A DNA stretch of 64,000 nt. It comes from Holophagales bacterium. GTDB taxonomy: Bacteria; Acidobacteriota; Thermoanaerobaculia; Multivoradales; UBA5704. Of this stretch, positions 1,987 through 63,500 are shown piece after piece; position 1 is the first letter of the stretch; each line of letters starts with the position of its first letter. The notes under the pieces are model-generated. The model was not told the origin of the DNA. It searched no databases and was given only the letters and a program-made list of their open reading frames with translations. The stretch is taken from positions 18,253 to 82,252 of the forward strand of contig JANMTS010000168.1 in assembly GCA_031390755.1 (NCBI GenBank), read 5' to 3'. A program made the translations under genes and the position numbers.

Positions 1987-3651
1987 ATGGGGCCCAAGAG
2001 CGTGAACCGGCCGGGGACACAGACCTGGTCAACCCCGGCGGGTGAGCCCCGGCCTGCGCTCACCGTTCCCGGCTTGACGATCCTCGGCCACCCTCAGATC
2101 CAGCGGGTCGGCGAGCGGGTGGCGTTGCTCGATCTCTCGTCGGGCCGGGAGACGCTCTTGTCGCGGGGGGAACCGGAGTTCTCCATGCCGGGCGAGTCGG
2201 TCTTCCGGCCGCTCGCCGCTCCCTATCTCAGCCGCCGTCCCTGGCTCCTCCAACCGGCGGCCGGCGGCGGCATCCGGATGCTCCGGGGCGACTCCCCCAT
2301 GTCTCTCGCCGCCGACGGCGAGCCGGTCGAGGGCGAAGCTTCGTTCTCGGCCGCCGAGGTGGATCGCGGCGTGGTGCTGCTTCTCGCCGGCCAGGTGGTC
2401 CTCCTGCTGCATCGCTTCCGCCCGGTCTTTCCCGGCAGCTTGCCACGCTACGGGCTGGTGGGCCTGAGCGATCCCCTTCTCGACCTCTGCCGCCAGATCG
2501 CCCGGGTCGCGGACCTCGACGTCCCGGTGCTGTTGCGCGGCTCCTCGGGCACCGGCAAGGAGCTGGTGGCGGCGGCTCTTCACCGCGCGAGCCGCCGGCA
2601 GGACCGGCCGTTCGTGGCGCTCAACATGGGCGCCCTGCCCGCCTCGCTCGCCGCCGCCGAGCTGTTCGGGGCGGCGCGGGGCGCCTACACCGGCGCCGAG
2701 CAGGCGCGGCGGGGCGCCTTCCGCCGCGCCCACGGCGGGACGCTCTTCCTCGACGAGATCGGCGAAACGCCCCAGGAGGTGCAGCCGCTGCTGCTGCGCG
2801 CCCTGGAGAGCGGCGAGCTCCAGCCGCTGGGGAGTGAAGAGACGGCGCGCGTCGACGTGCGCGTCCTCGCCGCCACCGACGCGGCTCTCGAGGAGGCGGT
2901 CGCCGCCGGGCGCTTCCGCGGCCCGCTCCTGCACCGCCTGGGCGGATACGCGATCCGCCTCCCCGCCCTGCGCGAGCGGCGTGACGACATCGGCCGGCTG
3001 TTCTTTCACTTCCTGCGCGAGGAGCTCGCCGCCGTGGGAGAGGAGCGCCGCCTGACCGATCCCGATCCGGAGGCGCAGCCCTGGCCTCCCGCGGCGTGGA
3101 TCGCCCGCCTCGCCGCCGCCCCCTGGCCCGGCAACGTCCGCCAGCTGCGCAACGTCGCCCGCTCTCTGGCCATCGACTGCCGCCGTTTCGGGGAGGACAC
3201 CTCGGAAAGCACTCCGGAAGACACCGACCGGCTTCCCGCGGCGATCGAGGATCTGCTGGGCGACGAGAGACCGGTCCCGGAAACGGGCTTGCCGCCGGCA
3301 GCACCACCCGCAGTACCGTCGGCAGTACTGGCTCCGGCACGCACAGCCTTCCGCAGCCCTCAGGACGTCTCGGAAGAGGAGCTGCTCGCGGCGCTCGCGG
3401 CCAACCGCTGGCAGCCCCGGGAGACCGCCCGCCAGCTCGGCATCTCGCGCCCTTCGCTCTATTTTCTTCTCGATACCTTTCCGAGCGTTCGCAAGGCGAT
3501 GGACCTGAGCCGTGAAGAGATCGTCGAAGCCGGGGAACGCTGCGGCGGCCGTCTGCGCGAGATGGCGGCGATCCTGCGCGTCTCGGAAGCAGGAATCCGG
3601 CGCCGGATGAAACAGCTCGGCCTGCTCCCGGTCTCCCCCAAACAGCCATGA
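1987..3651 (+). CDS. Sigma-54-dependent transcriptional activator (bEBP) with FHA-like N-terminal region
   Basis: AAA+ sigma-54 interaction module: Walker A GSSGTGKE, GAYTGA (a GAFTGA variant), Walker B GTLFLDEIGE, VDVRVLAAT. C-terminal Fis-type HTH ETARQLGISRPSLYFLL. The N-terminal ~150 aa are beta-rich and FHA-like (weak). Confidence 0.88.
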   Translation: MGPKSVNRPGTQTWSTPAGEPRPALTVPGLTILGHPQIQRVGERVALLDLSSGRETLLSRGEPEFSMPGESVFRPLAAPYLSRRPWLLQPAAGGGIRMLRGDSPMSLAADGEPVEGEASFSAAEVDRGVVLLLAGQVVLLLHRFRPVFPGSLPRYGLVGLSDPLLDLCRQIARVADLDVPVLLRGSSGTGKELVAAALHRASRRQDRPFVALNMGALPASLAAAELFGAARGAYTGAEQARRGAFRRAHGGTLFLDEIGETPQEVQPLLLRALESGELQPLGSEETARVDVRVLAATDAALEEAVAAGRFRGPLLHRLGGYAIRLPALRERRDDIGRLFFHFLREELAAVGEERRLTDPDPEAQPWPPAAWIARLAAAPWPGNVRQLRNVARSLAIDCRRFGEDTSESTPEDTDRLPAAIEDLLGDERPVPETGLPPAAPPAVPSAVLAPARTAFRSPQDVSEEELLAALAANRWQPRETARQLGISRPSLYFLLDTFPSVRKAMDLSREEIVEAGERCGGRLREMAAILRVSEAGIRRRMKQLGLLPVSPKQP

Positions 3652-3667: not shown

Positions 3668-5980
3668 ATGAGCGGGGAAGAGCAGCCGCCCGCCCAAGCG
3701 CTGGGGCCTTACCGGCTCGTCGAGCGGCTCGCCGCCGGTGGCATGGGCGAGGTCTGGCGCGCCTGGGACGGCCGGCTGAAGCGGCCGGTGGCGGTCAAAC
3801 ATGTCCTGCCGGAGATCCTGGAACAGCCGGGCGCGCGCGAGCGCTTCCGCCGCGAGGCCGAGGCGGGGGCCCGGCTCACCCATCCTGCCGTGGTCCAGAT
3901 CTACGACCTGGTGGAATCGCCGGACGGCGACTGGCTCGTCATGGAGCTGGTGGTGGGTCAGACGCTGCGCGAGCTCCTCTCCGCCGGTCCACTCCCCGTC
4001 CGGAGCGCCTTGCTGTGGGGCCGCGAGATCGCCGGAGGGCTCGCCGCCGCCCATGCGCAGGGCATCCTGCATCGCGATCTCAAGGCGGGCAACGTGATGA
4101 TCGCGGCGGGCACGGCGGGCACCGCGGGGGGGCACGCCAAGATTCTCGACTTCGGCATCGCGCGGGCGCTGTCTCCCGAGGGGACGGGATCCGCGTCAGG
4201 GCAGGAGATGACGCTCACGGAGCCGGGAAGGGTGGCGGGCACGAGCTACGGCATGTCGCCCGAGCAGGCTCTGGGGCTGCCGCTCGATCCCCGCTCGGAC
4301 CTCTTCTCCCTGGGCTCGCTGCTCTACGAGATGCTCACCGGCGAGGCGCCGTTCCGCGCCTCCTCGGCCACGGCCTCTCTGACCCGCGTGTGCAGCTACC
4401 GCCCCTTGCCGGCACAGCGGCTGCGCGCGGAGATCCCCGCCGAGGTCTCCGTGCTGATCGAGCGGCTGCTCGAGAAGGAGCCGAACGCCCGCCCCCGGGA
4501 CGCCGAGGAGGTGGCCGCCCGCCTCGAAGAAGCCACGGCCAGACTGCCGGCACCGCGCCCGCCCGTCGAAACCGCGGCCCTGGCCGATAGCGCGGCCCCC
4601 GCACCCGGGTCGCCGTCGGACGAAGTCACGCGGGTCGAGGCCCTGCCGCGGTCCGCGGGTTTCGAATCGTCCAGCACCACCCTCCCGCGCATTCGCCGGA
4701 TGTTGCCGCGCTCTGCCGTCGTCCTCGCCGGCGGGCTCCTCCTCGCCCTGGCCCTCGGCTGGCAGGGCTGGCGCCTTGCCGCACCGCACCGCGCCGCCAG
4801 CACGTATGAGCTCTACGAGCAGGGCTCGGCGGCGCTCCGCCGCTACGACAAGCCGGGCAACCTCGACGAGGCGATCGCGGACTTCCGGCAGATCCTCGGC
4901 CGCGTCCCCGACCACGCGGCGGCCCACGCCGCCCTGGCGCGCGCCTGCCAGCTCAAGTTCATGAATCAGAGCAAGGACCGGATGTGGCTGGATCAGGCCC
5001 TGCCGCTGGCCGAGCGGGCCGTGGCGCTCGACGGCTATCTGGCGTCGGCCCGGGTGACTCTGGGTCTGGTCTACACCTCGCTCGGGCGTCTGGACGACGC
5101 CGCCCGGGAGATCGAAACGGCGATCCAGCTCGAACCGGGGAACGCGGACGCCCAGTACGCCCTCGGCACCCTGCACGAAGCCCGGACGGAGCTCGGCCTG
5201 GCGGAAGCCGCGTTTCAGCGTGCGGTCGCCCTGCGCCCCGACCGCCAGTTCTACGACGCGCTGGGCGCGCTCTACTTGCGCACCGGACGCCTCGCCCAGG
5301 CCATCGCGGCCTTCCAGAGCAGCATCCGCCTGGCCCCCGACGGCTTTGTCGGCTATCGCAACCTGGGAGGGGCCTACTATGCCCAGGGCGATCTGTCCCA
5401 GGCCGCCGCCCAGTTTCAGAAGGCGCTGGAGATCCAGCCCGAGCCGTCGCTCTACACCAACCTGGGAGTCCTCTACTTCGCCCAGGGGCTCTATCCGCAG
5501 GCGGCCCAGGCTTTCGAGCAGGCGCTCGAGTTGCAGGGAGGGGCCAACGACTATCGCGTCTGGGGCAATCTCGGGGACGCCTGCCGCTTCCTGCCCGAGG
5601 GCGGCGCCCGGGCTCGCGAGGCCTACTCGCGGGCCCTCCAGCTCCTGGCGGACCCGCTTCGCGCCGCACCGCGCGATGCCACTCTCCTGAGCCGGCGCGC
5701 GCTCTACCTGGCCAAGCGCGGGGACTGCGGACCCGCCCTCGCGGCGGTCAAGGAGATCGAACGGCTGGCGCAGAAGGACGCCGGCGCCCAGTTCCGGCTC
5801 GTGGTCGCCCACGAGGTCTGCGGCCGCCGCGTGGCCGCGCTCGCGGTGCTCGAAAAAGCGCTGCACAACGGCTACCCCCTGGCCGACGTGCAGCGCGATC
5901 CGGAGCTCCTCGCGCTACGCGCCGACGTGCGCTATCACAGACTCCTGATCCGCCTGGCTCCCGCCTCGAACGCTCCGTGA
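3668..5980 (+). CDS. Ser/Thr protein kinase with one TM segment and C-terminal TPR repeats
   Basis: Hanks motifs GGMGEV..VAVK, HRDLKAGNVM, DFGIA, SPEQ. TM segment AVVLAGGLLLALALGW. Multiple TPR-like repeats follow. The start is 17 nt after the bEBP stop. Confidence 0.9.
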   Translation: MSGEEQPPAQALGPYRLVERLAAGGMGEVWRAWDGRLKRPVAVKHVLPEILEQPGARERFRREAEAGARLTHPAVVQIYDLVESPDGDWLVMELVVGQTLRELLSAGPLPVRSALLWGREIAGGLAAAHAQGILHRDLKAGNVMIAAGTAGTAGGHAKILDFGIARALSPEGTGSASGQEMTLTEPGRVAGTSYGMSPEQALGLPLDPRSDLFSLGSLLYEMLTGEAPFRASSATASLTRVCSYRPLPAQRLRAEIPAEVSVLIERLLEKEPNARPRDAEEVAARLEEATARLPAPRPPVETAALADSAAPAPGSPSDEVTRVEALPRSAGFESSSTTLPRIRRMLPRSAVVLAGGLLLALALGWQGWRLAAPHRAASTYELYEQGSAALRRYDKPGNLDEAIADFRQILGRVPDHAAAHAALARACQLKFMNQSKDRMWLDQALPLAERAVALDGYLASARVTLGLVYTSLGRLDDAAREIETAIQLEPGNADAQYALGTLHEARTELGLAEAAFQRAVALRPDRQFYDALGALYLRTGRLAQAIAAFQSSIRLAPDGFVGYRNLGGAYYAQGDLSQAAAQFQKALEIQPEPSLYTNLGVLYFAQGLYPQAAQAFEQALELQGGANDYRVWGNLGDACRFLPEGGARAREAYSRALQLLADPLRAAPRDATLLSRRALYLAKRGDCGPALAAVKEIERLAQKDAGAQFRLVVAHEVCGRRVAALAVLEKALHNGYPLADVQRDPELLALRADVRYHRLLIRLAPASNAP

Positions 5981-6002
5981 AGAGGTTCCGAGGTCACCGA
6001 GG

Positions 6003-6503
6003 TCACGTGTTCGGCCCCACGATCATCTCGGGATCGTGGCTGAAAAGGCGTACGAATCCATCGAGCCCGATCGCCTGAATCTGGGTGGTCAGGAGAAATC
6101 GCAGAGCCGTAGCCGTTTGCGGCTCCACCTGATCCCCTACCTTCTTCATCGTCACCATCACCTCCTGCGAGGTCCAGGAGCGGTGAACGTTCTGGAAAAC
6201 CGCGCTTTGAGCCGTGGTCGAGTCCAATGTGATCGCAGGCTGGAGGGAGCTCAACCCTTTGCCCACCAGCTGCTCCTTGACGGCTGCCTGAGTCAGGATG
6301 ACGAAAGATCCGATCCCCGCCACCTGCGGCCCTTCCGATGAGGTCACATCGGAGATCCTGAAAACGATGGTCTCGCCGATTTGCACCGGCGCAGTGCCCG
6401 GCAAGGGCACGCCGTTTGCGACCAGGCCTCCGCGCAAGTAGCTCACGCCCGCGGTCTCCACCGCGTTCCAATCGATTCCCAGCTCCCAGACATAAGTGGC
6501 CAT
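6003..6503 (-). CDS. Hypothetical protein (166 aa), sigma-54-promoter-associated
   Basis: Clean ORF with SD AAAGGAGAAAG upstream of ATG 6503. A sigma-54-type promoter lies 58 nt upstream. No family recognised. Confidence 0.6.
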   Translation of the reverse strand: MATYVWELGIDWNAVETAGVSYLRGGLVANGVPLPGTAPVQIGETIVFRISDVTSSEGPQVAGIGSFVILTQAAVKEQLVGKGLSSLQPAITLDSTTAQSAVFQNVHRSWTSQEVMVTMKKVGDQVEPQTATALRFLLTTQIQAIGLDGFVRLFSHDPEMIVGPNT

Positions 6504-6560
6504 GTTCTTTCTCCTTTGGGTTGCGAACGTCTTTCTTCACAGACTTCCTCCAACGTCTTG

Positions 6561-6576
6561 AGCAAGGCGTGCGCCA
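6561..6576 (-). promoter_or_regulatory. Sigma-54 (-24/-12) promoter candidate for 6003..6503
   Basis: The minus strand reads TGGCGC-ACGCC-TTGCT, which fits TGGCAC-N5-TTGCW. Confidence 0.6.
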
Positions 6577-6605
6577 AGGTCAACACCCCTCGTCTCCCGT
6601 CGCCC

Positions 6606-6664
6606 GGAGGTTGTCGGAGGTTGTCGGAGAGCCCGGCCCGACAGTCGGAGCTGTCGCTGACAAC
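6606..6664. promoter_or_regulatory. Candidate enhancer (UAS), copy 1: tandem GGAGGTTGTCGG plus TGTCGG/CCGACA palindromes
   Basis: GGAGGTTGTCGGAGGTTGTCGGAGAGCCCGGCCCGACAGTCGGAGCTGTCGCTGACAAC. It lies between two divergent sigma-54 promoters. Confidence 0.5.
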
Positions 6665-6697
6665 TGCGTACAAGCTCTTTTCCCTCTGTGCTTTGCC

Positions 6698-6712
6698 TGG
6701 CATATCCCTTGC
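6698..6712 (+). promoter_or_regulatory. Sigma-54 (-24/-12) promoter candidate for 6807..7913
   Basis: TGGCAT-ATCCC-TTGC, about 95 nt upstream of ATG 6807. Confidence 0.7.
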
Positions 6713-6806
6713 CTTTGTCCAGTCGCAGACATTACGGCGAACACGACAGGTCATCGGCCATCGAGCCGGACGGTGCAAGCGCCGCTAAAAACGAAAGGGA
6801 GAATCC

Positions 6807-7913
6807 ATGAGTGAAAATATTCAGAGGATCGGCTCGATGAACAACGGCTCGGCCAAAGGCTCCGTCCGCCGGGCCGTGTGCGGCGCACTGGTTACCGTCA
6901 TCGCAGGGCTTCTCCCGTGGCAACCCGCTGCCGATGCCTGTACGCGCGTCCTGTGGAACAAGAATAATCTCCACCTCGTCGTTACCGGACGATCCATGGA
7001 CTGGCCGGAATCCACCGATCCGGTGCTCACCGTGCTGCCGCGGGGTATGAAGCGCGACGGCGGTCGTGCCGGCTCAGAGGTGGTCGTCGGCTCCAACCCA
7101 GCCCAGTGGACGTCCAAATATGGCAGCCTCGTGACGACGATCTACGGAATGGGCACCGCCGACGGGTTCAACGAGCGCGGCCTGGGCGCCCATATGCTCT
7201 ACCTCAAGGATGCCGACTTCGGTCCGCGAGTTGTAAGCAAGCCCGCCGTGCAGGCTGGATTGTGGGCGCAGTTCCTGCTCGACAACGCGGCGACCGTCGA
7301 TGAAGCCCTCGCGCTGCTCAACACTGTTCAGGTGGTGCCGGTGGAGTCGCACGGCCACAAGGCCAACGTACACCTGGCGATCGAGGATGCGAGCGGCGAC
7401 TCCGCGATCATCGAATACGCCAACGGCGGACAGATCGTGCACCACAGCCGCGAGTACCGGATCATGACCAACGAACCGCTCTACGCCGTGCAGCTCGCGC
7501 TGCTGAAGGAGCATGACTTCTCCAAGCCGAGCAGCGCTACCCCCCTGCCCGGCAACGTCAGGCCGGAGGACCGCTTCCAGCGCGCCGCCTACTTCGCCGC
7601 GTTGCTGCCTGAACCGAAGAGCGAGCGCGAAGCGGTGGCGGCTGTGATGGCCATCGTGCGCAACGCGTCGGTTCCGTTCGGCGCGCCCTACCAGGGCTTT
7701 GGTATCTACAACACCGAGTACCGCACCGTGACCAATCTCACCGACCAGCGCTACTTCTTCGAGCTGACGACAAGCCCCAACGTGTTTTGGGCGAACCTCT
7801 CGAAGTTCGACCTGGCCCCCGGCGCCTCGGTGATGATCCTCAATCCGTACGACATCGAGCTGGCGGGGGACGTGACCGGAAAGTTCCAGAAGGCACCGAC
7901 AGCGCCGTTCTGA
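6807..7913 (+). CDS. Choloylglycine hydrolase / linear amide C-N hydrolase family (Ntn hydrolase), secreted
   Basis: The signal peptide ends ...PAADA|CTRVLW, exposing the N-terminal nucleophile Cys typical of penicillin V acylase/bile-salt hydrolase-like enzymes. Length and the GRSMDW, NE(R/K)GL segments fit the family. Confidence 0.8.
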   Translation: MSENIQRIGSMNNGSAKGSVRRAVCGALVTVIAGLLPWQPAADACTRVLWNKNNLHLVVTGRSMDWPESTDPVLTVLPRGMKRDGGRAGSEVVVGSNPAQWTSKYGSLVTTIYGMGTADGFNERGLGAHMLYLKDADFGPRVVSKPAVQAGLWAQFLLDNAATVDEALALLNTVQVVPVESHGHKANVHLAIEDASGDSAIIEYANGGQIVHHSREYRIMTNEPLYAVQLALLKEHDFSKPSSATPLPGNVRPEDRFQRAAYFAALLPEPKSEREAVAAVMAIVRNASVPFGAPYQGFGIYNTEYRTVTNLTDQRYFFELTTSPNVFWANLSKFDLAPGASVMILNPYDIELAGDVTGKFQKAPTAPF

Positions 7914-7967
7914 GGAAATCCAAGTTCCTGGACCGGCTGCTTGGATGTTGGCTACGGAAATCGGGCA

Positions 7968-7990
7968 GGCGGGGGATTTTCTCCCCCGCC
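7968..7990. terminator. GC-rich hairpin between convergent genes
   Basis: GGCGGGGGA-TTTTC-TCCCCCGCC. No clear U-tract follows on the plus strand. Confidence 0.4.
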
Positions 7991-8072
7991 CCCCCCACAC
8001 CACCCAGCTTGCGTGTCCCCGGCCCCGAGCCTCGCCGGAGCAATACCGTAAAACAAACCGGCAAGGTCCCCG

Positions 8073-8324
8073 TCAGGCAAACTCACATCCCGGGCTTCTT
8101 CTCCTCTGTCTTGGGTTGAGAGCATCGCCAGCCTTCATCATCGGGCAGTCCATCCCGCCCTTGGTGTGCATGTCCATGTGACTCATCATGTGCTCCCTCA
8201 TCTCGCGCTGCCTCTCCATCATCATCGCGCGATAAACCTTGCGCTGGGCGACGAGCTCGTTGATGACCGCCGCCATGGGCTTCTCCATGGCGGCGGCCTC
8301 TTTGGCCCCTTGGGCGGCGTTCAT
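8073..8324 (-). CDS. Possible small Met/His-rich protein
   Basis: 83-aa ORF containing RAMMMERQREMREHMMSHMDMHTKGGMDCPMMK. No clear SD, no signal peptide, and an alternative overlapping frame (8083..8331) exists. Confidence 0.3.
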   Translation of the reverse strand: MNAAQGAKEAAAMEKPMAAVINELVAQRKVYRAMMMERQREMREHMMSHMDMHTKGGMDCPMMKAGDALNPRQRRRSPGCEFA

Positions 8325-8370
8325 CTTTCAAAAATCGGGTGATACCCCTTCTTCTCGTCTCCAGTCGCTC

Positions 8371-8433
8371 GGAGGTTGTCGGAGGTTGTCGGAGAACCCG
8401 GCCCGACAGTCGGAGCTGTCGCCGACAACCTCC
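8371..8433. promoter_or_regulatory. Candidate enhancer (UAS), copy 2
   Basis: GGAGGTTGTCGG (8371-8382) is the perfect reverse complement of CCGACAACCTCC (8422-8433). An inner TGTCGG...CCGACA palindrome is also present. The block is near-identical to 6606-6664. Confidence 0.5.
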
Positions 8434-8462
8434 CGTAAGCTCTTTTCCCTCTGTAGTTTACC

Positions 8463-8477
8463 TGGCACATCCCTTGC
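8463..8477 (+). promoter_or_regulatory. Sigma-54 (-24/-12) promoter candidate for 8574..8852
   Basis: TGGCAC-ATCCC-TTGC, a perfect consensus core, about 97 nt upstream of ATG 8574. Confidence 0.75.
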
Positions 8478-8573
8478 TTTTGTCCAGCCGTAGACATCAC
8501 GGCGACCACGACAGGTCAGCGGCGATCAGGCCGGCTGGCGCAAGCCGCGAAAAACCAGAGAAAAGGAGACTTC

Positions 8574-8852
8574 ATGTCACACACTCTTCTTGGCGCATGG
8601 GGCGGTCTCAGCTTCACCATCACCCCCGAAGCGAAAACCGTATTCGATCAGGCGTTGGAGGGTTTGGTGGGAGTCCAGTACACCCCGCTGGCCTTTGCCA
8701 TTCAGGTCGTCGCCGGGCTGAACTACTGCTTCCTCTGCGAAGGGAAGGTTGTTTATCCTGGGCAGCCTGCGTTCGCGGCACTGATCTACATCTATGCGCC
8801 GTTTGATGGCAGCAAGCCTCATATCACCGACATCACGCGGATCCACCCGTAG
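8574..8852 (+). CDS. Stefin/cystatin-like protein (putative cysteine-protease inhibitor, I25-like)
   Basis: 92 aa, no signal peptide, SD AAAGGAGA. It has an N-terminal GGLS, the central QVVAGLNY (the cystatin QxVxG loop; stefins A/B have QVVAGTNY) and a later PFDG hairpin-like segment. The spacing matches animal stefins A/B. Confidence 0.7.
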   Translation: MSHTLLGAWGGLSFTITPEAKTVFDQALEGLVGVQYTPLAFAIQVVAGLNYCFLCEGKVVYPGQPAFAALIYIYAPFDGSKPHITDITRIHP

Positions 8853-8913
8853 GTGTAGGGGCAAGGCTGGGGAAAGCTTTCAAGCTCCAGGGAAGTCTTG
8901 ACTGACAAGGACA

Positions 8914-8937
8914 GGGCCGCCCCGCATGGGGCGGCCC
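8914..8937 (+). terminator. Hairpin after the stefin-like gene
   Basis: GGGCCGCCCC-GCAT-GGGGCGGCCC, followed by CAGTTTG (weak U-tract). Confidence 0.45.
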
Positions 8938-9034
8938 CAGTTTGCGGCAATCCCCCTGGTTCCACTCCTCCTACACGCAGGCCATTGCCTTGGTCCAATC
9001 TCGGTCCGAGGTGAATAAAAAAGGACAAGCTGCC

Positions 9035-10387
9035 ATGTACAAACCAGTCAATGTCGTGCCCGTTATCGACACCTCCTCCAGCATGACGTATTATGGTTAT
9101 GTGGAAGTCACAAAGCGGGACAGCGAAGCGTTCGTCTCGTACTCCCTGCCCGGGGACGGGCTCGGCGTGGTGAACTTTGACAAGGATGCATACGTCACCT
9201 ATCCCTTCCACATCGTCGACAATGACCTCTCGCAGGTGGGCGAAGCGTCACGGGCGATCCAGGGGCTTTCGTTTGACGGCCGCCGCACTGCGATCGGGCT
9301 AGGGCTCCAGGCAGCGGAAAAGATGTTGAATGCAAAGGCCGACCCGCGCAGCGTCATGCTCCTTACGGACGGATATAATAATGAGGATCCTAAACCGCTC
9401 AGTGTCCTGCCGAAAGGTTATCCTGTCTACACCTGTGCCTTGGGAGCGGACGCAGATAGAAAACTGTTACGCGAGATGGCAACAAGCACGGGGGGCGAAT
9501 GGTATGAGGTGGACAGTCCCAACAGGATGATGGTCGCCTTCAACGATATCCGCGCCCGTGAAAACCAAGTCAAGTGTGTGGTGAATGAGTCCGCCCAAAT
9601 CCCGAAGCCGGGGGATACTCATCGCTACGCGGATATTAAAGCGAAGATCTCCGGTGGCTCCATGCTCCAGATCGGGGTGGTCTGGGACAAGAATTCGCTC
9701 AGCTACACAAACAGCCTTTCCCCGGCGGCTCAGGAAATCGGCATCGTGCTGGCGGATCCGATTAACAGGGACTCGCGCATTCAGCCGCGGATCAAGGGCG
9801 TGGGCTACGTTGTCTTCGATATTCCCTCCCCTGAGCGAGGGGAGTGGATTGTTCAAGTCGCCTCCGGCAGCCCTTTGCCCATCAATGTGACCTGCGGCGT
9901 GTTCGAGTTCCCGGCCAACCCGCAAGGAGCGGCGGACCTGATCGTCTCCGCCCCCACTTCGATTCGGGTCGGCGAATCTCTGGCGGTGCAAGCTCACGTT
10001 GTTGAGAACGGCGAGCGCGTCCAGAATCTGCAGGTACGCGCCGAGGTGGTCCAGCCCACCTTGAGCATTTCGAATGCCTTGACAACCTACAAGGACGAGA
10101 TCGAGAAGGTCGAGCTCACGGAGGAAGATTCCACGCCCGGCGTGCCGCAGGATCGCCGGCGCCTGGCGAAGCTGCGTGCGAAGCTCTTTCCCGAGCGCGA
10201 TATCCTCGCTCATCGCAGCTCTGGGCTGATTCTGAGGGAGGGCGTGGAAAGCAGGTACGGCGCGAGCCTCGAAGACACACACCAGGCGGGCGGCTACACC
10301 ATCCGGGTCGTGGCGAGTGGCGTCTCCCCGGAGACGGGCGCGGCATTCCAGAGAACACGCCTGGCCACTGTCATCGTGACCGATTGA
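9035..10387 (+). CDS. von Willebrand factor A (vWA) domain protein
   Basis: Internal ATG 9035 of ORF 8942..10387. MIDAS DTSSSM, then TAIGLGL and LLTDGYNN. The C-terminal half is beta-rich. Confidence 0.8.
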   Translation: MYKPVNVVPVIDTSSSMTYYGYVEVTKRDSEAFVSYSLPGDGLGVVNFDKDAYVTYPFHIVDNDLSQVGEASRAIQGLSFDGRRTAIGLGLQAAEKMLNAKADPRSVMLLTDGYNNEDPKPLSVLPKGYPVYTCALGADADRKLLREMATSTGGEWYEVDSPNRMMVAFNDIRARENQVKCVVNESAQIPKPGDTHRYADIKAKISGGSMLQIGVVWDKNSLSYTNSLSPAAQEIGIVLADPINRDSRIQPRIKGVGYVVFDIPSPERGEWIVQVASGSPLPINVTCGVFEFPANPQGAADLIVSAPTSIRVGESLAVQAHVVENGERVQNLQVRAEVVQPTLSISNALTTYKDEIEKVELTEEDSTPGVPQDRRRLAKLRAKLFPERDILAHRSSGLILREGVESRYGASLEDTHQAGGYTIRVVASGVSPETGAAFQRTRLATVIVTD

Positions 10388-10557
10388 GTGCATGGGTGTC
10401 ATCGAGCCCTCCCCGCGCCCCCGGGCGTGGGGAGCCTCGCACGGACCGGACTCTTGTACGTAATCCCCTCGGCAGAGCCTCGTCGGGTGTCAACCTCCGC
10501 CAACCATCCCCGAGTCTGCGAACGCCTGGGCGAGAAGATCCTCAATACCGGCTCCTG

Positions 10558-11769
10558 CTACACCCCGCCGATGCTCCGCGGCAGGAGCACCCACATCCGG
10601 CCGGAGTGCTTCATACGGCCCGCGATCTCGGCGGCGTCCTCGCCGTTCCCCCAGAAGACATCGCCCCGGACGACTCCGCGGATGGCGCCGCCGGTGTCCT
10701 GCGCCACGACGAGCCGGCGGAGGGGACGGTCCGGCTTGCCTGGATGGGGCGACGGTGCTTCGGCGTCCAGCCAGACAGGGACGCCCAGGGGCCAGTGTTT
10801 GAGGTCGACGGCGAGCGACCGGCCGGGGGTCAGGGCGACGCCTTCGGCTCCGAGCGGCCCCTCCCCTTCCAGCTCCTGGAAGAAGACGTAGGAGGCGTTG
10901 CGGGCCATCACGCCGGCCGCTTCGTCCGGATGCTCTTCGAGCCAGCGGCGGATCGACTGCATGGAGACCGTCGCCTTCGTCAGCTCTCCCCGGTCGATCA
11001 GCTCCCGGCCGATGGCGAAGTAGGGGTGGCCGTTCTGCGCGGCGTAGCCGACCCGAAGCTCGTCCCCGCCTTCCAGCCGGATGCGGCCCGAGCCCTGGAT
11101 CTGGAGGAAGAAGGCGTCGATCGGATCGTCCACCCAGACCAGCTCGAGATCCCGGCCGGCCAGGGCGCCCGAGTCGATCCCCTTGCGGTCGGGATAGGGG
11201 ACGAGCGTGCCCTCCTCCACCCGGCCGGCGATGCGCTGGCCCTTCAGCTCGTCGCGGAAGGCGCCCAGGTCCACCATCACCAGGTCCGGAGGGCGGAGGT
11301 AGAGCGGCGTTTGATACGCGCCGCCCCGCGTGCGGCTGCCGTCGAGCGACGGCTCGTAGTAGCCGGTGAAGAGGCCCTCGGAATTGGCCCCTGGATTGCC
11401 TGCCGAACGGGCGGCGAAGGGCTGAAAATGGGATTCGAAGAAAGCCCGCGCCGCGTCCGGCTTCGCGCCTTGCGCCGCCTCGCAGACCGGCTTCCAGTCA
11501 CCGGCCGTGCCCGCGATTCCGAGTGTCCTTTCCGGGGGCAGGCCGGTCAGCCGGCGGCACGACCGGAGCAGCGCGGGCAGGGCCTGGGAGAGATCATCCT
11601 CTTTCCAACCGGGGAGATCGTCGAAGGAGGCCGGCTCCAGGACGAGTCGCTCCTCTCCGCTGCCTCCTCCCGGAGGCCGCCAGCCGTCCAGCCGCAGGAG
11701 CTTCCAGAACGTGGCGGACGCGAGGGCGACGAGGACCAGGGCGAGGGCGAAGAGAGCGCGGCGCGACAT
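10558..11769 (-). CDS. mltA: Membrane-bound lytic murein transglycosylase A (MltA) family
   Basis: Signal/anchor MSRRALFALALVLVALA. MltA-like segments FTGYYEP and GSGRIRLEGG..VGYAAQNGHPY, and a 3D-domain-like C-terminus with DTGGAIRG. Confidence 0.8.
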   Translation of the reverse strand: MSRRALFALALVLVALASATFWKLLRLDGWRPPGGGSGEERLVLEPASFDDLPGWKEDDLSQALPALLRSCRRLTGLPPERTLGIAGTAGDWKPVCEAAQGAKPDAARAFFESHFQPFAARSAGNPGANSEGLFTGYYEPSLDGSRTRGGAYQTPLYLRPPDLVMVDLGAFRDELKGQRIAGRVEEGTLVPYPDRKGIDSGALAGRDLELVWVDDPIDAFFLQIQGSGRIRLEGGDELRVGYAAQNGHPYFAIGRELIDRGELTKATVSMQSIRRWLEEHPDEAAGVMARNASYVFFQELEGEGPLGAEGVALTPGRSLAVDLKHWPLGVPVWLDAEAPSPHPGKPDRPLRRLVVAQDTGGAIRGVVRGDVFWGNGEDAAEIAGRMKHSGRMWVLLPRSIGGV

Positions 11770-60454: not shown

Positions 60455-60469
60455 TGGCACCGGCGTTGC
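60455..60469 (+). promoter_or_regulatory. Sigma-54 (-24/-12) promoter candidate for 60549..
   Basis: TGGCAC-CGGCG-TTGC, 80 nt upstream of ATG 60549. Confidence 0.65.
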
Positions 60470-60548: not shown

Positions 60549-63500
60549 ATGCGATGGAACCGCTTTTCGACGGTCAGGCTCCTGCTGTGTCTGATGATGC
60601 TCTCCGCCGGCTCCGCGTGGGGTCGGGAAGAACGCGGTTTCCTGCTGGAAACGCAGGACGGCTCCCTCATCGAAGCGCCCGTGCTCGGCGCCACGGTGGA
60701 GGTGCGGGTCACCGGCATCGTGGCGCGCGCCCGGGTGACCCAGATCTTCAGGAATCCCGGCAAGGAATGGCTGAACGGCGTCTATCTCTTCCCGCTGCCG
60801 GAAGGCGCGGCCGTGGACACGCTGCATCTCACGGTCGGCGGCCGGCGGATGGTGGGAATCGTCCAGACGAAGGAAGAGGCCCGGGAGACCGTGAAGGCCG
60901 CCGAGCAGGAAGGGCGGAAGGCCTCGCTGCTGGAGCAGGTCCGGCCGGGCCTCTACACCACCACGGTGGCGAACGTCGGCCCGGGTGAGACGGTCGAGGT
61001 CGAGATCGAGCTGCAACAGGCCGTGCAGTGGGAGCAGGGACGGTTCGTGCTCCGCTTCCCCATGCTGGCGCAGCCGCGATCCGCGGTACAGACAGGGACG
61101 GACGAAGAGAAGATCCCTCGGCCTCCGGTGGTTTCCCGTGGACGGCCGATCAACCCGTTCGCGTTCCATGTCGACCTGGCTCCCGGCTTTCCGCTCCGGC
61201 AGGTGGCGAGCACGACCCACAAGGTGACCGTGGTGCAGGACCGGGCGCAGGACCAAGCGCGGGAACGCTGGGCCGTGGACCTCGCCGACGGCGTGGCGCC
61301 GGCCGACGGCGACTTCGTCCTCGAATGGACGCCCGCCGTGGGCCGCGAGCCGCGCGCCGTCTACTTCGCCGAGGAGGTGGACGGCGAGCGCTACTCCCTT
61401 CTCCTGATGATGCCTCCCGACGACGGCTCGGCCGTGGCGGACCGGCTGCCGCGCGAGACCGTGTTCGTGATCGACACCTCGGGCTCGATGGAAGGGCAGG
61501 CGCTCGAGCAGGCGAAGGCGGCGCTCCAGCAGGGGGTCGCCCGGCTTCAGCCTGGCGACTGGTTCAACGTGATGCGGTTCAGCACCACGGCCTCGGCGCT
61601 GTTCCCAGAGAGCGTTCCGGTCGGCCCGGAGACGCTGGCCGCAGCGCGGACGTACATCGCGTCGCTCAAGGTGGACGGCGGCACGAACATGCTCGACGGT
61701 CTGAAGCTGGCCCTGAAGGGCGGCCGGCCCGAGCTCGTGCAGCAGGTGGTCTTCGCGACCGACGGCGAGGTGTCGAACGAGGCGGAGATCCTGGGCAGCC
61801 TCAGGCGCCTCCTCGGCAGCCACCGACTGTTCACCGTGGCGATCGGCTCGGCGCCCCACATCGATTTCCTGCGGCGCGCCGCAGAGACGGGACGCGGCTC
61901 GCTCACCCGGATCGCCAGCCTCGACCAGGTCGCGGCGGGCATGGCCGAGCTGTTCTCGCGGCTCGAATCGCCGATGCTCCGGGATCTCGACGTCCGGTGG
62001 TCCGATCCGGCGGCCGAGGCGTTCCCCGCGCGAGCTCCGGACCTCTACCTCGGCGAGCCGGTGCAGGTCTCCGCCCGTTCGAGCTCCCGTTCGGGCGAGC
62101 CCGGGGCCGTCGAGGTCTCCGGTCTGCGCAACGGCGCCTCCTGGCAGGACGAGCTACCCGCTCCCGCGATGGTGAAGGGTGCCGGGCTCGACAAGCTCTG
62201 GGCTGCCAGGAAGATTCAAGCCCTGACGGACTCCCTCGACGACCCGGAAGCCCCCGCCGATCCCGACGAAGTGAGGCGCGAGGTGATCGAGCTGGGCCTG
62301 CGCCATCACCTCGTCACCGAATGGACCAGCCTGGTGGCCGTGGATGTGGAGGTGACGGTTCCGGCCGGCATCGATCCGAAGCGCGTCCTTCTGCCCCTCA
62401 ACTCGCCGCAGGACTTCGACTCCGGCATCAAACAATGGATCACGGTGACGGCGGAGAACCCGATCCTCGACAGCCGCCGGATCTCTACCGGCTCAACCGT
62501 GTCGCAGACCGAGCTTCAGAAGATCCCCTCGGCGCGCGATCCGTGGGCCATCCTCCGCTCCACGCCCGGCGTCCTGACGGACCGCGTGAACGTGGGCGGT
62601 AACGAGAGCGGCCAGCGGTCGGCCTTCGTCTCGTGTGGAGCCTCACCGAACCAGAGCTCCTTCGTGGTCGACGGCGTGATCCTCACCGAGGCCGCGCTGG
62701 GCGGCGCCCCGAGCTACTTCGACTTCGACGCCTTCGAAGAGATGCAGGTGGATACCGGCGGGGCCGACGTGACGCTGGAGACCGCGGGGGCACGGCTGAC
62801 GATGCTGAGGCCGCGGGGCAACAACCAGTGGCGGGGCTCGGCGAGCAGCGAATTCGCGGACGGAGGCGGGACGGGTGACGGCGGTGACGGCGGCGGTGCC
62901 CGCGATGGCCGCCTCGACAGCCTCCTCACCGTCGACGCCGAGGCGGGCGGCCCGGTCGTCCTCGATCGCATCTGGGTCTGGGGGGAGGCCGGGAACGACG
63001 AGATCGACCGCATCGCGCTCGGCGGCCAGCTCGAAGAGCGCCAGCGGACGAGCGGCAGCCTGCGCATCGACGCCCAGCTCCTGCCGACGATCTCGGCCAG
63101 CCTGACCGCGAGCGGCGGCGACGCCGACGGGTCGGGGATCGGGGCCGGTCCCGGCCGCTCCGCCAGCACGACCTGGGACGAGACCGGCCGCGAACGCCTC
63201 GGCTCGATCGACGTCACCGGCATCCTCACCCCGGGCTTCTACGTCACTCTCGCCGCAGGCGGGAGCGAGCGGGAGCTTCGGGATGTCCCCTACGGGGTCG
63301 GCGACGCGGTTCTCGGAACCGACGGCGTCGCCCGCGGCGGCTGGTTCGGCTTCGGCGAGGAGGAGCGGACCCGGGAAGCCCGGCTCGCGTCCTCCCTCTT
63401 CTTCAACTCGGGCCGTGTCTCGCACGAGCTGGTGCTCGGCTCGGGCTGGCGGGAGCAGGCCGAGGTCCGCACGCTCGACGCGCCGGACCGGGTGCGGATC

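Follow-up and report, generated by a model that had tools for sequence, protein, structure and literature searches.

The stretch analysed here, hereafter the window, comprises 64,000 nucleotides (64 kb) of contig JANMTS010000168.1 from a Holophagales bacterium. It contains two copies of a noncoding block, placed upstream of different genes, and each copy can be read as the cis-regulatory cassette of a local sigma-54 regulon, made of an enhancer, a sigma-54 promoter and a conserved 5' leader. To this reading, with the full mechanism as proposed below, we give a probability of about 0.72; its sigma-54 enhancer component, taken by itself, is held with much the same confidence, while the role of the leader and the control by a kinase are put forward tentatively, at less than even odds. 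The cassettes belong to a module that also comprises a sigma-54 activator gene, a Ser/Thr kinase gene, a gene for a 166-aa protein (p166) and variable downstream genes, here called cargo. The anatomy of this module, its pattern of conservation, its fixed spacing, its co-location with the activator and its portability were all read from the sequences themselves, and they describe a previously undescribed, lineage-wide type of sigma-54 regulon, ordinary in mechanism and unusual in its portable design.

Two copies of the cassette in the window

A repeat search returned one long direct repeat of 201 nt, 6589-6789 against 8354-8554, ungapped and 85% identical, and an earlier, sequence-only reading, which had described two co-linear and mostly identical blocks, was thus confirmed. 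In a pairwise MAFFT alignment the likeness runs from CTCGTCTCC (~6590 and ~8355) up to the start codons at 6807 and 8574, with no similarity in the coding sequences nor further upstream. The two copies are 1.77 kb apart, both inside a block of lower GC content (0.58-0.65 across 6001-10000 vs 0.68-0.75 in the flanks), which had also been noticed, and a profile hidden Markov model (HMM) of the cassette found no third copy within the window. The parts of the two cassettes are as follows.

6504-6550, minus strand: conserved leader of the p166 gene, predicted at 47 nt (reverse complement ...GGAGAAAGACGTTCGCAACCCAAAGGAGAACGATCATG) from an alignment of 17 loci, its start placed from the position of the -12 element
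6562-6577, minus strand: divergent sigma-54 promoter for p166 (reverse complement TTGGCGCACGCCTTGC), GG at 6575-6574 and GC at 6563-6562
6606-6664, no strand: enhancer (upstream activator sequence, UAS) of copy 1, two 10-bp-spaced direct repeats GGAGGTTGTC followed by GGAGAGCCCGGCCCGACAGTCGGAGCTGTCGCTGACAAC
6665-6696, no strand: T-rich spacer AAGCTCTTTTCCCTCTGTGCTTTGCC of fixed length between enhancer and promoter (59 ± 1 bp from enhancer to GG)
6697-6712, plus strand: forward sigma-54 promoter of copy 1, CTGGCATATCCCTTGC, GG at 6699-6700 and GC at 6711-6712, predicted start ~6724
6724-6806, plus strand: leader 1, ~83 nt, with proximal AGACATYACGGCGA, distal ATCGGCCATCGAGCCGGACGGTGCAAGCGCCGC, an A-rich linker and the Shine-Dalgarno (SD) sequence GGGAG at 6797-6801
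8371-8433, no strand: enhancer (UAS) of copy 2, with perfectly complementary outer arms GGAGGTTGTCGG and CCGACAACCTCC
8462-8477, plus strand: forward sigma-54 promoter of copy 2, CTGGCACATCCCTTGC, GG at 8464-8465 and GC at 8476-8477, predicted start ~8489
8489-8573, plus strand: leader 2, ~85 nt, the variant common to the cassettes that drive p92 orthologs in other genomes

The enhancer is built on a tandem motif. Each copy has GGAGGTTGTCGG twice on the plus strand, as a tandem of 10-bp period (6606 and 6616, 8371 and 8381), and copy 2 has it once more on the minus strand, at 8422-8433. With at most one mismatch it has 6 matches, as against 0.55 expected, and none of 100 shuffles reached 6. 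The palindrome claimed for copy 2 is indeed a perfect 12-nt inverted pair (8371-8382 with 8422-8433). In copy 1, the direct repeats are followed on their 3' side by TGTCGG/CCGACA/GACAG...CTGTC inverted sites, and the motif map gives five TGTC/GACA cores, three of them co-oriented at 10- and 30-bp steps and two inverted. The T-rich spacer downstream of this array may bend the DNA.

The promoters proposed at 6698-6712 and 8463-8477 were recovered as matches to TGGCAY-N5-TTGC, a pattern with 3 matches in the 64 kb where 0.13 would be expected. Promoters of the sigma-54 class (TGGCAC-N5-TTGCW) have GG and GC doublets exactly one helical turn apart and activator sites ~70-150 bp upstream at a fixed distance; all three promoters of the window carry such doublets, and the conserved array of predicted activator sites at 6606-6664 is centred within that range. 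Among the forward promoters matching TGG-N9-TGC in related loci (n = 47), the CA and the T of CTGGCA-N6-TTGC are invariant and spacer positions 7-10 vary; since the search pattern forced TGG and TGC, the independent evidence consists of this CA, this T, the variability of the spacer and a spacing that stays constant: all 47 of the 47 cassettes have 59 ± 1 bp between enhancer core and forward GG. Scans for intrinsic terminators and sigma-70 promoters gave matches no more frequent than in shuffles.

The divergent promoter said to face copy 1 was found as TGGCGCACGCCTTGC on the minus strand at 6576-6562, 28 bp from the enhancer. Its TTGGCGCACGCGTTGCA element is conserved in the divergent promoters of 35 cassettes, mostly at 65 bp from the enhancer core. 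From the enhancer centre (~6635) it is ~89 bp to the predicted forward start (~6724) and ~85 bp to the predicted divergent start (~6550), and one enhancer lying ~85-90 bp from two opposed sigma-54 promoters would switch on p166 and the first cargo operon together. The likeness of copy 2 to copy 1 begins at ~8355, just downstream of where a divergent promoter would lie, so that copy 2 lacks this promoter and is one-directional.

A further element in the window resembles the enhancer. Where the low-GC island ends on the right, between the stop codons of the vWA gene (see below) and of the MltA gene, CAACCTCCGCCAACC at 10491-10505 complements the repeat of the enhancer tandem at 14/15 positions; the match may be due to chance, or it may be what is left of an inverted cassette.

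Distribution and conservation of the module

The cassette was found in at least 40 loci, in metagenome-assembled genomes (MAGs) of Thermoanaerobaculia and in metagenomes. A first scan, baited with the tandem enhancer 20-mer, covered 185,579 species genomes, one genome per species, and returned at least 17 loci; among the matches listed, 13 were true cassettes in MAGs of Thermoanaerobaculia, Holophagales or Acidobacteriota, with a single locus per genome, including one contig of 5.9 Mb. A second scan of metagenome contigs with the other enhancer half, CGACAGTCGGAGCTGTCGC, added at least 32 loci, and a profile search gave at least 51 cassette matches in the retrieved loci (numbered below with the prefix L). 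Wherever the flank suffices, the order is invariable: activator, kinase with tetratricopeptide repeats (TPR), p166 on the opposite strand, cassette, variable cargo. Loci fetched independently through p166 homologs showed this same order, with 1-4 cassettes or partial cassettes each. The central claim of the sequence-only reading, that a sigma-54 promoter, a palindromic enhancer and a leader are reused before different genes, was thereby strongly supported, by 47 cassettes with a 59 ± 1 bp spacing and by an activator that is syntenic in every related locus with enough flank.

The module seems embedded in changing surroundings. In the 20-kb neighbourhoods of L050, L052, L054, L055, L057 and L058-L061, the genes outside the module differ in each genome, and the synonymous divergence of the module is only ~0.25. 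The module may thus be mobile as a unit, by horizontal transfer; integrases and transposases were not found in the neighbourhoods examined.

Conservation within the module is strongly uneven. Mean pairwise identity across 26 cassettes is 0.92 in the enhancer, of which a part is ascertainment because the two scans were baited with enhancer sub-sequences, 0.83-0.9 in the distal leader and 0.4-0.6 in unconstrained columns. The enhancer is near-invariant also in loci fetched through the other UAS half or through the p166 protein. On one side of the cassette, the cargo genes are mostly non-homologous between genomes. On the other, p166 evolves far faster than the neighbouring activator and kinase: over eight genomes (the window copy at 6003-6503 and its orthologs in L002, L004, L009, L013, L014, L015 and L024), the mean nonsynonymous and synonymous divergences (dN and dS) are 0.47 and 0.70 in p166, as against 0.08 and 0.26 in the activator and 0.09 and 0.25 in the kinase. 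This suggests either old allelic lineages of p166 exchanged by recombination, or diversifying selection. That functional parts are kept between two hypervariable neighbours suggests that purifying selection acts on enhancer and promoters and on a large part of the leader. A blanket statement that the noncoding cassette is more conserved than coding sequence was considered and dropped, four-fold sites of the kinase being 0.84 identical where the cassette (first 172 nt) averages 0.81.

The activator, the kinase and a proposed mechanism

Two genes upstream of the cassettes encode the candidate regulators.

1987-3651, plus strand: sigma-54 enhancer-binding protein (bEBP), 554 aa, with an AAA+ domain carrying a GAYTGA loop and two tandem Fis-type helix-turn-helix (HTH) motifs
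3668-5980, plus strand: Ser/Thr protein kinase with a C-terminal TPR array, 770 aa (Pfam Pkinase 1e-38, many TPR families)

The bEBP, whose gene lies 3 kb upstream of the cassette, matches Pfam Sigma54_activat (1.7e-56), AAA_lid_14 and, in 2 stretches, HTH_8. A scan of the window for GAFTGA found none; a relaxed six-frame scan (G[AS][FY][TS]GA) found GAYTGA in the 1987-3651 open reading frame (ORF) and, at the corresponding place, in ten related loci. HrpS naturally carries this variant of the loop and is functional with it (PMC3105312). Orthologs of the bEBP, 75-91% identical, occupy the same position in related loci. Its two tandem HTH motifs would fit the 10-bp direct repeats of the enhancer. 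The kinase gene starts 17 nt past the bEBP stop codon and is probably co-transcribed with it, and the order of the two is kept in all loci with enough flank. PADLOC gave only generic AAA+ and kinase matches, and nothing for p166, p92, vWA or CBAH.

Related pairs occur elsewhere. In L052 (13511-17494) and L060 (1-3183), a paralogous bEBP with a GAF domain is followed by a TPR Ser/Thr kinase, less than 10 kb from the module; these genomes seem to use the combination of an activator with a kinase repeatedly. In L016 (552-5832), the cassette lies between two paralogous activator copies, both with a (GNVS/GNVA)n insertion in the N-terminal domain. A bEBP with an FHA domain, of the Myxococcus type controlled by Ser/Thr kinases, was considered for the window protein and dropped, in view of the lack of any Pfam match in its N-terminal domain at E<=10 or PDB profile match and of a model at pLDDT 47.

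From a mechanistic point of view, the bEBP would bind the 60-bp array of TGTCGG-type sites, form an ATPase ring, loop over the fixed-length T-rich spacer and remodel the sigma-54 RNA polymerase waiting at CTGGCAC-N5-TTGC, and the TPR Ser/Thr kinase would probably supply the input signal of the activator. In the first cassette, p166 and the first cargo operon would be co-activated from the shared enhancer. Additional copies of enhancer, promoter and leader would bring more cargo under the same switch, a choloylglycine hydrolase gene in copy 1 and, in copy 2, p92, probably with read-through to vWA. The conserved leader would act after initiation, by stabilising the mRNA, standardising its translation or offering a site to a trans-acting factor, and cassette and cargo would move jointly by recombination within a hypervariable island.

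p166 and the cargo genes

The genes around the cassettes, and the hairpins between them, are listed below.

6003-6503, minus strand: p166, 166 aa, start codon at 6503; it belongs to no Pfam or NCBIfam family and is in every case oriented divergently to the first cassette
6807-7913, plus strand: cargo 1, exported N-terminal nucleophile (Ntn) hydrolase of the choloylglycine hydrolase / penicillin V acylase family (Pfam CBAH 5.7e-58)
7963-7995, plus strand: GC-rich hairpin (inverted repeat) past the CBAH gene, found again after a CBAH 3' remnant in L014; probable end of transcription unit 1
8073-8324, minus strand: Met/His-rich putative ORF of 83 aa (MMMERQREMREHMMSHMDMH...), divergent from cassette copy 2
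8574-8852, plus strand: cargo 2a, p92, 92 aa, cystatin/stefin-like by its QVVAG motif and a PDB match, no signal peptide
8914-8937, plus strand: GC-rich hairpin with a poor T-tract between p92 and vWA, read from sequence, which may act as a partial terminator
9035-10387, plus strand: cargo 2b, vWA-domain protein, 450 aa (Pfam VWA 1e-14)

Homologs of p166 fall into 89 clusters, none with a Pfam domain, and those with a taxonomic label all belong to Thermoanaerobaculia/Acidobacteriota. The protein is confidently modelled as a beta-sandwich (AlphaFold2 predicted local distance difference test, pLDDT, 91), for which Foldseek gave SO1698, PixA (4lzk) and MakC/D at TM 0.4-0.46, a weak PixA/AidA-like similarity.

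Copy 1 does lie upstream of an Ntn gene of the choloylglycine hydrolase family, as the sequence-only reading had stated. The product has a signal peptide ahead of the nucleophile Cys45, and residue 45 aligns with residue 1 of a mature enzyme (PDB 5j9r, E=1.5e-65). For copy 2, a stefin-like gene and perhaps the vWA gene had been named as targets. The stefin-like assignment is plausible: p92 has no Pfam match, and its sole PDB sequence match is a weak one, to cystatin 6i1m (E=0.16), aligned over QVVAG. Orthologs of p92 follow cassettes in L005, L011, L012, L023, L028 and L033. The vWA target was strengthened, since the counterpart of the proximal 5' region of vWA (8985-9034) is, for the ortholog in L058, fused directly to a cassette leader, which places the vWA gene in the regulon. 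The 83-aa ORF had no Pfam, NCBIfam or PADLOC match, and no relative in any fetched locus.

In other genomes, the cargo includes PixA inclusion-body proteins (8.7e-38), Vps62-domain proteins, CBAH, p92 and vWA, together with PI-PLC, Exo_endo_phos, an M36 peptidase, an F5/8 type C protein, a TIR-TonB_C protein and several family-less secreted proteins. The cargo at L011 2281-3453 (plus strand) is a secreted protein with a Cys-rich C-terminal extension, homologous to sphingomyelinase D / phospholipase D toxins, namely the dermonecrotic ones of Loxosceles spiders (PDB 3rlh, E=1.3e-13) and those of Corynebacterium. That the cargo forms an anti-eukaryote (anti-grazer) programme is a reasonable guess. 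A protein with a TIR domain and a TonB C-terminus recurs as cargo (L016, L036, L020, L038), behind a cassette whose leader is short and different.

In a freshwater metatranscriptome (run X33), low-depth contigs are 80-93% like the CBAH and p92 genes (window 7267-7501 and 8625-8843), which hints that relatives express these genes, DNA carry-over being possible. Rhizosphere and sediment runs of doubtful RNA origin cover the non-transcribed enhancer too, and are therefore indistinguishable from DNA. Far from the module, at 60455-60469 (plus strand), the window holds another good sigma-54-type element, CTGGCACCGGCGTTGCT, unrelated to the cassette and ~80 nt upstream of the ATG at 60550, which opens a signal-peptide-like ORF.

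The conserved leader

The leader is conserved over the first 65-70 of its ~85 nt, and is under constraint. It is modular: a proximal AGACATCACGGCGA is near-universal, and some two thirds of the cassettes also have a distal ATCGGCCATCGAGCCGGACGGTGCAAGCGCCGCG, in whose place the remainder carry unrelated sequence. Pieces of it also occur apart from any promoter. In L011, a promoterless distal module (3538-3571) lies between two cargo genes, 62 nt ahead of the next ATG; in L037 (1763-1780), a shortened leader follows a stop codon and keeps only the outer CGGCG/CGCC complement; and in L014 (324-392, minus strand), a complete promoterless leader stands at the distal edge of the island. Such pieces would fit either a function at the mRNA level or scars of recombination. 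HMMs of the leader alone found nothing outside the islands. With low confidence, we regard the leader as a 5'-proximal sequence that stabilises the mRNA or standardises its translation, or as the site of a trans-acting factor, rather than as a riboswitch.

A second conserved hairpin element, GAGGRCC-N6/7-GGYCCCTCGCGCA, occurs ahead of cargo genes, either within certain leaders or immediately past a partial cassette that consists of the enhancer alone (L027 ~1730-1800, L041 ~4900-5000, L059 ~8760-8800).

Weighing the regulon against its alternatives

Several results weigh against the sigma-54 regulon as set out above, the whole of which is built on computational evidence. No RpoN box was found within the 64-kb window. 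The N-terminal ~155 aa of the bEBP have no Pfam match at E<=10; a PDB profile search with this domain gave one chance match, with 15 fragmentary homologs only, and its AlphaFold2 model (pLDDT 47) is unusable, so that the link from kinase to activator is drawn from conserved gene adjacency alone. Part of the invariance of the enhancer is ascertainment, as explained above. The metatranscriptome contigs comprise low-level relatives of CBAH and p92 only, and hold no 5' ends. Finally, tests of leader structure gave no positive support. RNAalifold on 24 leaders gave three short helices with 0 of 15 pairs showing a compensatory change and a covariation term of +0.24, and 13 named pairs counted in 29 leaders were 96% paired, showed no double change and did not differ from the shuffles; at 91% identity per column, these covariation tests have low power. 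Single-sequence folding energies compared with shuffles gave z = +0.18 for leader 1 and -1.21 for leader 2.

These last results bear directly on the strongest of the alternatives, in which the leader is a structured cis-regulatory RNA (a riboswitch, a thermometer or a protein-binding fold) that gates translation or termination of the cargo. It would account for leader columns 0.83-0.9 identical where unconstrained ones are at 0.4-0.6, for a three-helix fold that is base-paired at 96% across 29 leaders, and for leader pieces placed before ORFs without a promoter (L011, and L037 with its outer CGGCG/CGCC helix only). The pairing is, however, free of compensatory change and equal to that of shuffles, the z-scores show no excess of folding energy, and copy 2 of the window and several relatives break predicted pairs. 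Moreover, an Rfam 15 cmscan of 5500-11000 at E<=1 returned two chance-level matches only, both outside the leaders; no conserved complement that would sequester the SD can be read from the sequence; and about one third of the cassettes have unrelated leaders. We consider this alternative improbable. Of the RNA-level element to which conservation of the whole leader had seemed to point, the conservation and constraint stand, and a structure is not supported.

A second alternative, to which we give a somewhat smaller chance, is that the cassette, and the leader especially, is kept alike mainly as a homology arm for cargo exchange, through concerted evolution. Traces of recombination are indeed numerous. 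Islands hold up to four cassettes (L060), and broken cassettes are found, with breaks within the enhancer (L060_9961), just after it (L061_9955) or inside the leader, there fused to the vWA 5' region (L058_9955), one more being reduced to the enhancer (L059_8850). In L014 (2400-2575, minus strand), a CBAH 3' end and its terminator hairpin lie behind an unrelated cargo gene of 120 aa; this remnant and the leader at the island edge look like scars of cargo replacement. Leader variants also accompany their cargo across genomes, and the flanking p166 and cargo are hypervariable. Against this, conservation is position-specific, with invariant promoter doublets beside variable spacers and a fixed spacing, and it holds between species, where conversion within a genome could not maintain it. 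Recombination moreover requires homology, but gives no reason for keeping precisely this 60-bp stretch of TGTCGG sites.

Lower again in our estimation stands the possibility that some regulator distinct from the adjacent bEBP binds the TGTCGG array, or that a repressor binds it as well, and that the bEBP has other targets. A TGTC-N8-GACA dyad (TGT-N10-ACA; consensus TTGTCCAACCGTAGACA) across the predicted start is a candidate repressor site, and the paralogous pairs of GAF-domain bEBP and kinase in L052 and L060 lie nearby. The cassette and the ortholog group of this very bEBP are nevertheless strictly co-located in all loci with flank, and the module has no further conserved DNA-binding protein. 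Lastly, a recent local segmental duplication or a small mobile repeat without regulatory meaning, resembling a miniature inverted-repeat transposable element, a repetitive extragenic palindrome or attC, which the 1.77-kb distance between the copies in a lower-GC block might evoke, has next to no chance of being right and was refuted, since identity stops exactly at both ATGs with none in the coding sequences, the motif occupies one locus per genome among the matches listed (with two copies in the window), terminal inverted repeats, target duplications and, in the neighbourhoods examined, integrases and transposases were not found, and the promoter-leader of copy 2 is 0.82-0.88 identical to foreign p92-driving cassettes (L005, L028, L033, L012) as against 0.79 to copy 1, which points to old paralogs travelling with their cargo.

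The sigma-54 regulon can also be pushed one step further. The cassette would then be a self-contained expression adaptor, in which a kinase-gated sigma-54 enhancer and promoter are combined with a new, promoter-independent 5' untranslated region (5'-UTR) element, used also between operon genes, to plug in cargo. We consider this extension unlikely, though less so than the alternatives above. If true, a dedicated factor would recognise the 5'-UTR element for stabilisation, processing or translation, and Thermoanaerobaculia would plug horizontally acquired anti-eukaryote effectors (PixA/AidA-like, sphingomyelinase-D-like, Vps62, cystatin-like, CBAH) into one inducible programme by homologous recombination, as a recombinase-free counterpart of the integron.

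The sigma-54 regulon, as read here, offers a complete candidate circuit for a class of soil and sediment Acidobacteriota, running from a TPR Ser/Thr kinase to a sigma-54 activator, then to enhancers and promoters, and finally to variable secreted or toxin-like genes. It indicates exactly which DNA footprinting and reporter assays could address, it would be a natural example of a regulatory module copied to bring newly acquired genes into a regulon, and it draws attention to a ~70-nt conserved 5' leader and to a fast-evolving family of 166-aa proteins.

Comparison with known systems

No paper describing this module was found in the literature, and searches on FHA- or kinase-linked bEBPs and on sigma-54 in Thermoanaerobaculia yielded nothing relevant. 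Several known systems nonetheless share parts of its design. The zraP-zraSR intergenic region of E. coli contains divergent sigma-54 promoters with common ZraR binding sites. The module described here is similar in its two opposed sigma-54 promoters around common, here predicted, activator sites, with one activator for both directions. It differs in that its activator gene lies outside the two divergent units and is paired with a eukaryote-type Ser/Thr kinase instead of a histidine kinase, in that its enhancer consists of 10-bp direct repeats plus inverted sites, and in that the unit is copied before further variable genes.

The NifA-dependent nif and fix promoters, with a TGT-N10-ACA UAS and a -24/-12 promoter before many operons, likewise repeat a stereotyped module of enhancer and sigma-54 promoter before the operons of a regulon, with the enhancer ~80-150 bp upstream. 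The cassettes differ by their five TGTCGG-type cores within 60 bp, by their ~70 nt of conserved 5' leader and by a cargo that varies between genomes, whereas nif genes form a fixed pathway. Portable upstream expression regions are also known, such as the upstream homology box of Borrelia and the Pc/attC arrangement of integrons. By analogy, a conserved upstream expression sequence stands there before diverse exchangeable genes and may spread by recombination; in contrast, the present module shows no integrase or attC, each cargo unit has its own enhancer and promoter, and regulation is of the sigma-54 type.

Among bEBPs, PexR of Myxococcus xanthus uses three UASs in the divergent pexR-ahpC intergenic region (PMC12754779). 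The likeness lies in an intergenic region below 300 bp, conserved in the lineage, with several UASs and a sigma-54 promoter adjoining the activator gene. The GAF domain of PexR, however, senses H2O2 and its targets are a fixed peroxide-defence gene set (PMC12754779), whereas the present module comprises a TPR kinase, has sigma-54 promoters in both divergent directions and serves varying targets, and the N-terminal domain of its activator has no Pfam match. HrpR/HrpS, acting on hrpL in Pseudomonas syringae (PMC3105312), share the GAYTGA variant loop and the control of genes for interaction with other organisms, but form a hetero-hexamer without a sensory domain at a single promoter, that of an extracytoplasmic function (ECF) sigma factor gene, with no reuse of a cassette. 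Four features thus set the module apart from its known analogues: its enhancer is laid out differently, its activator is paired with a TPR Ser/Thr kinase, its 5' leader is conserved, and the unit is copied as a whole before exchangeable cargo.

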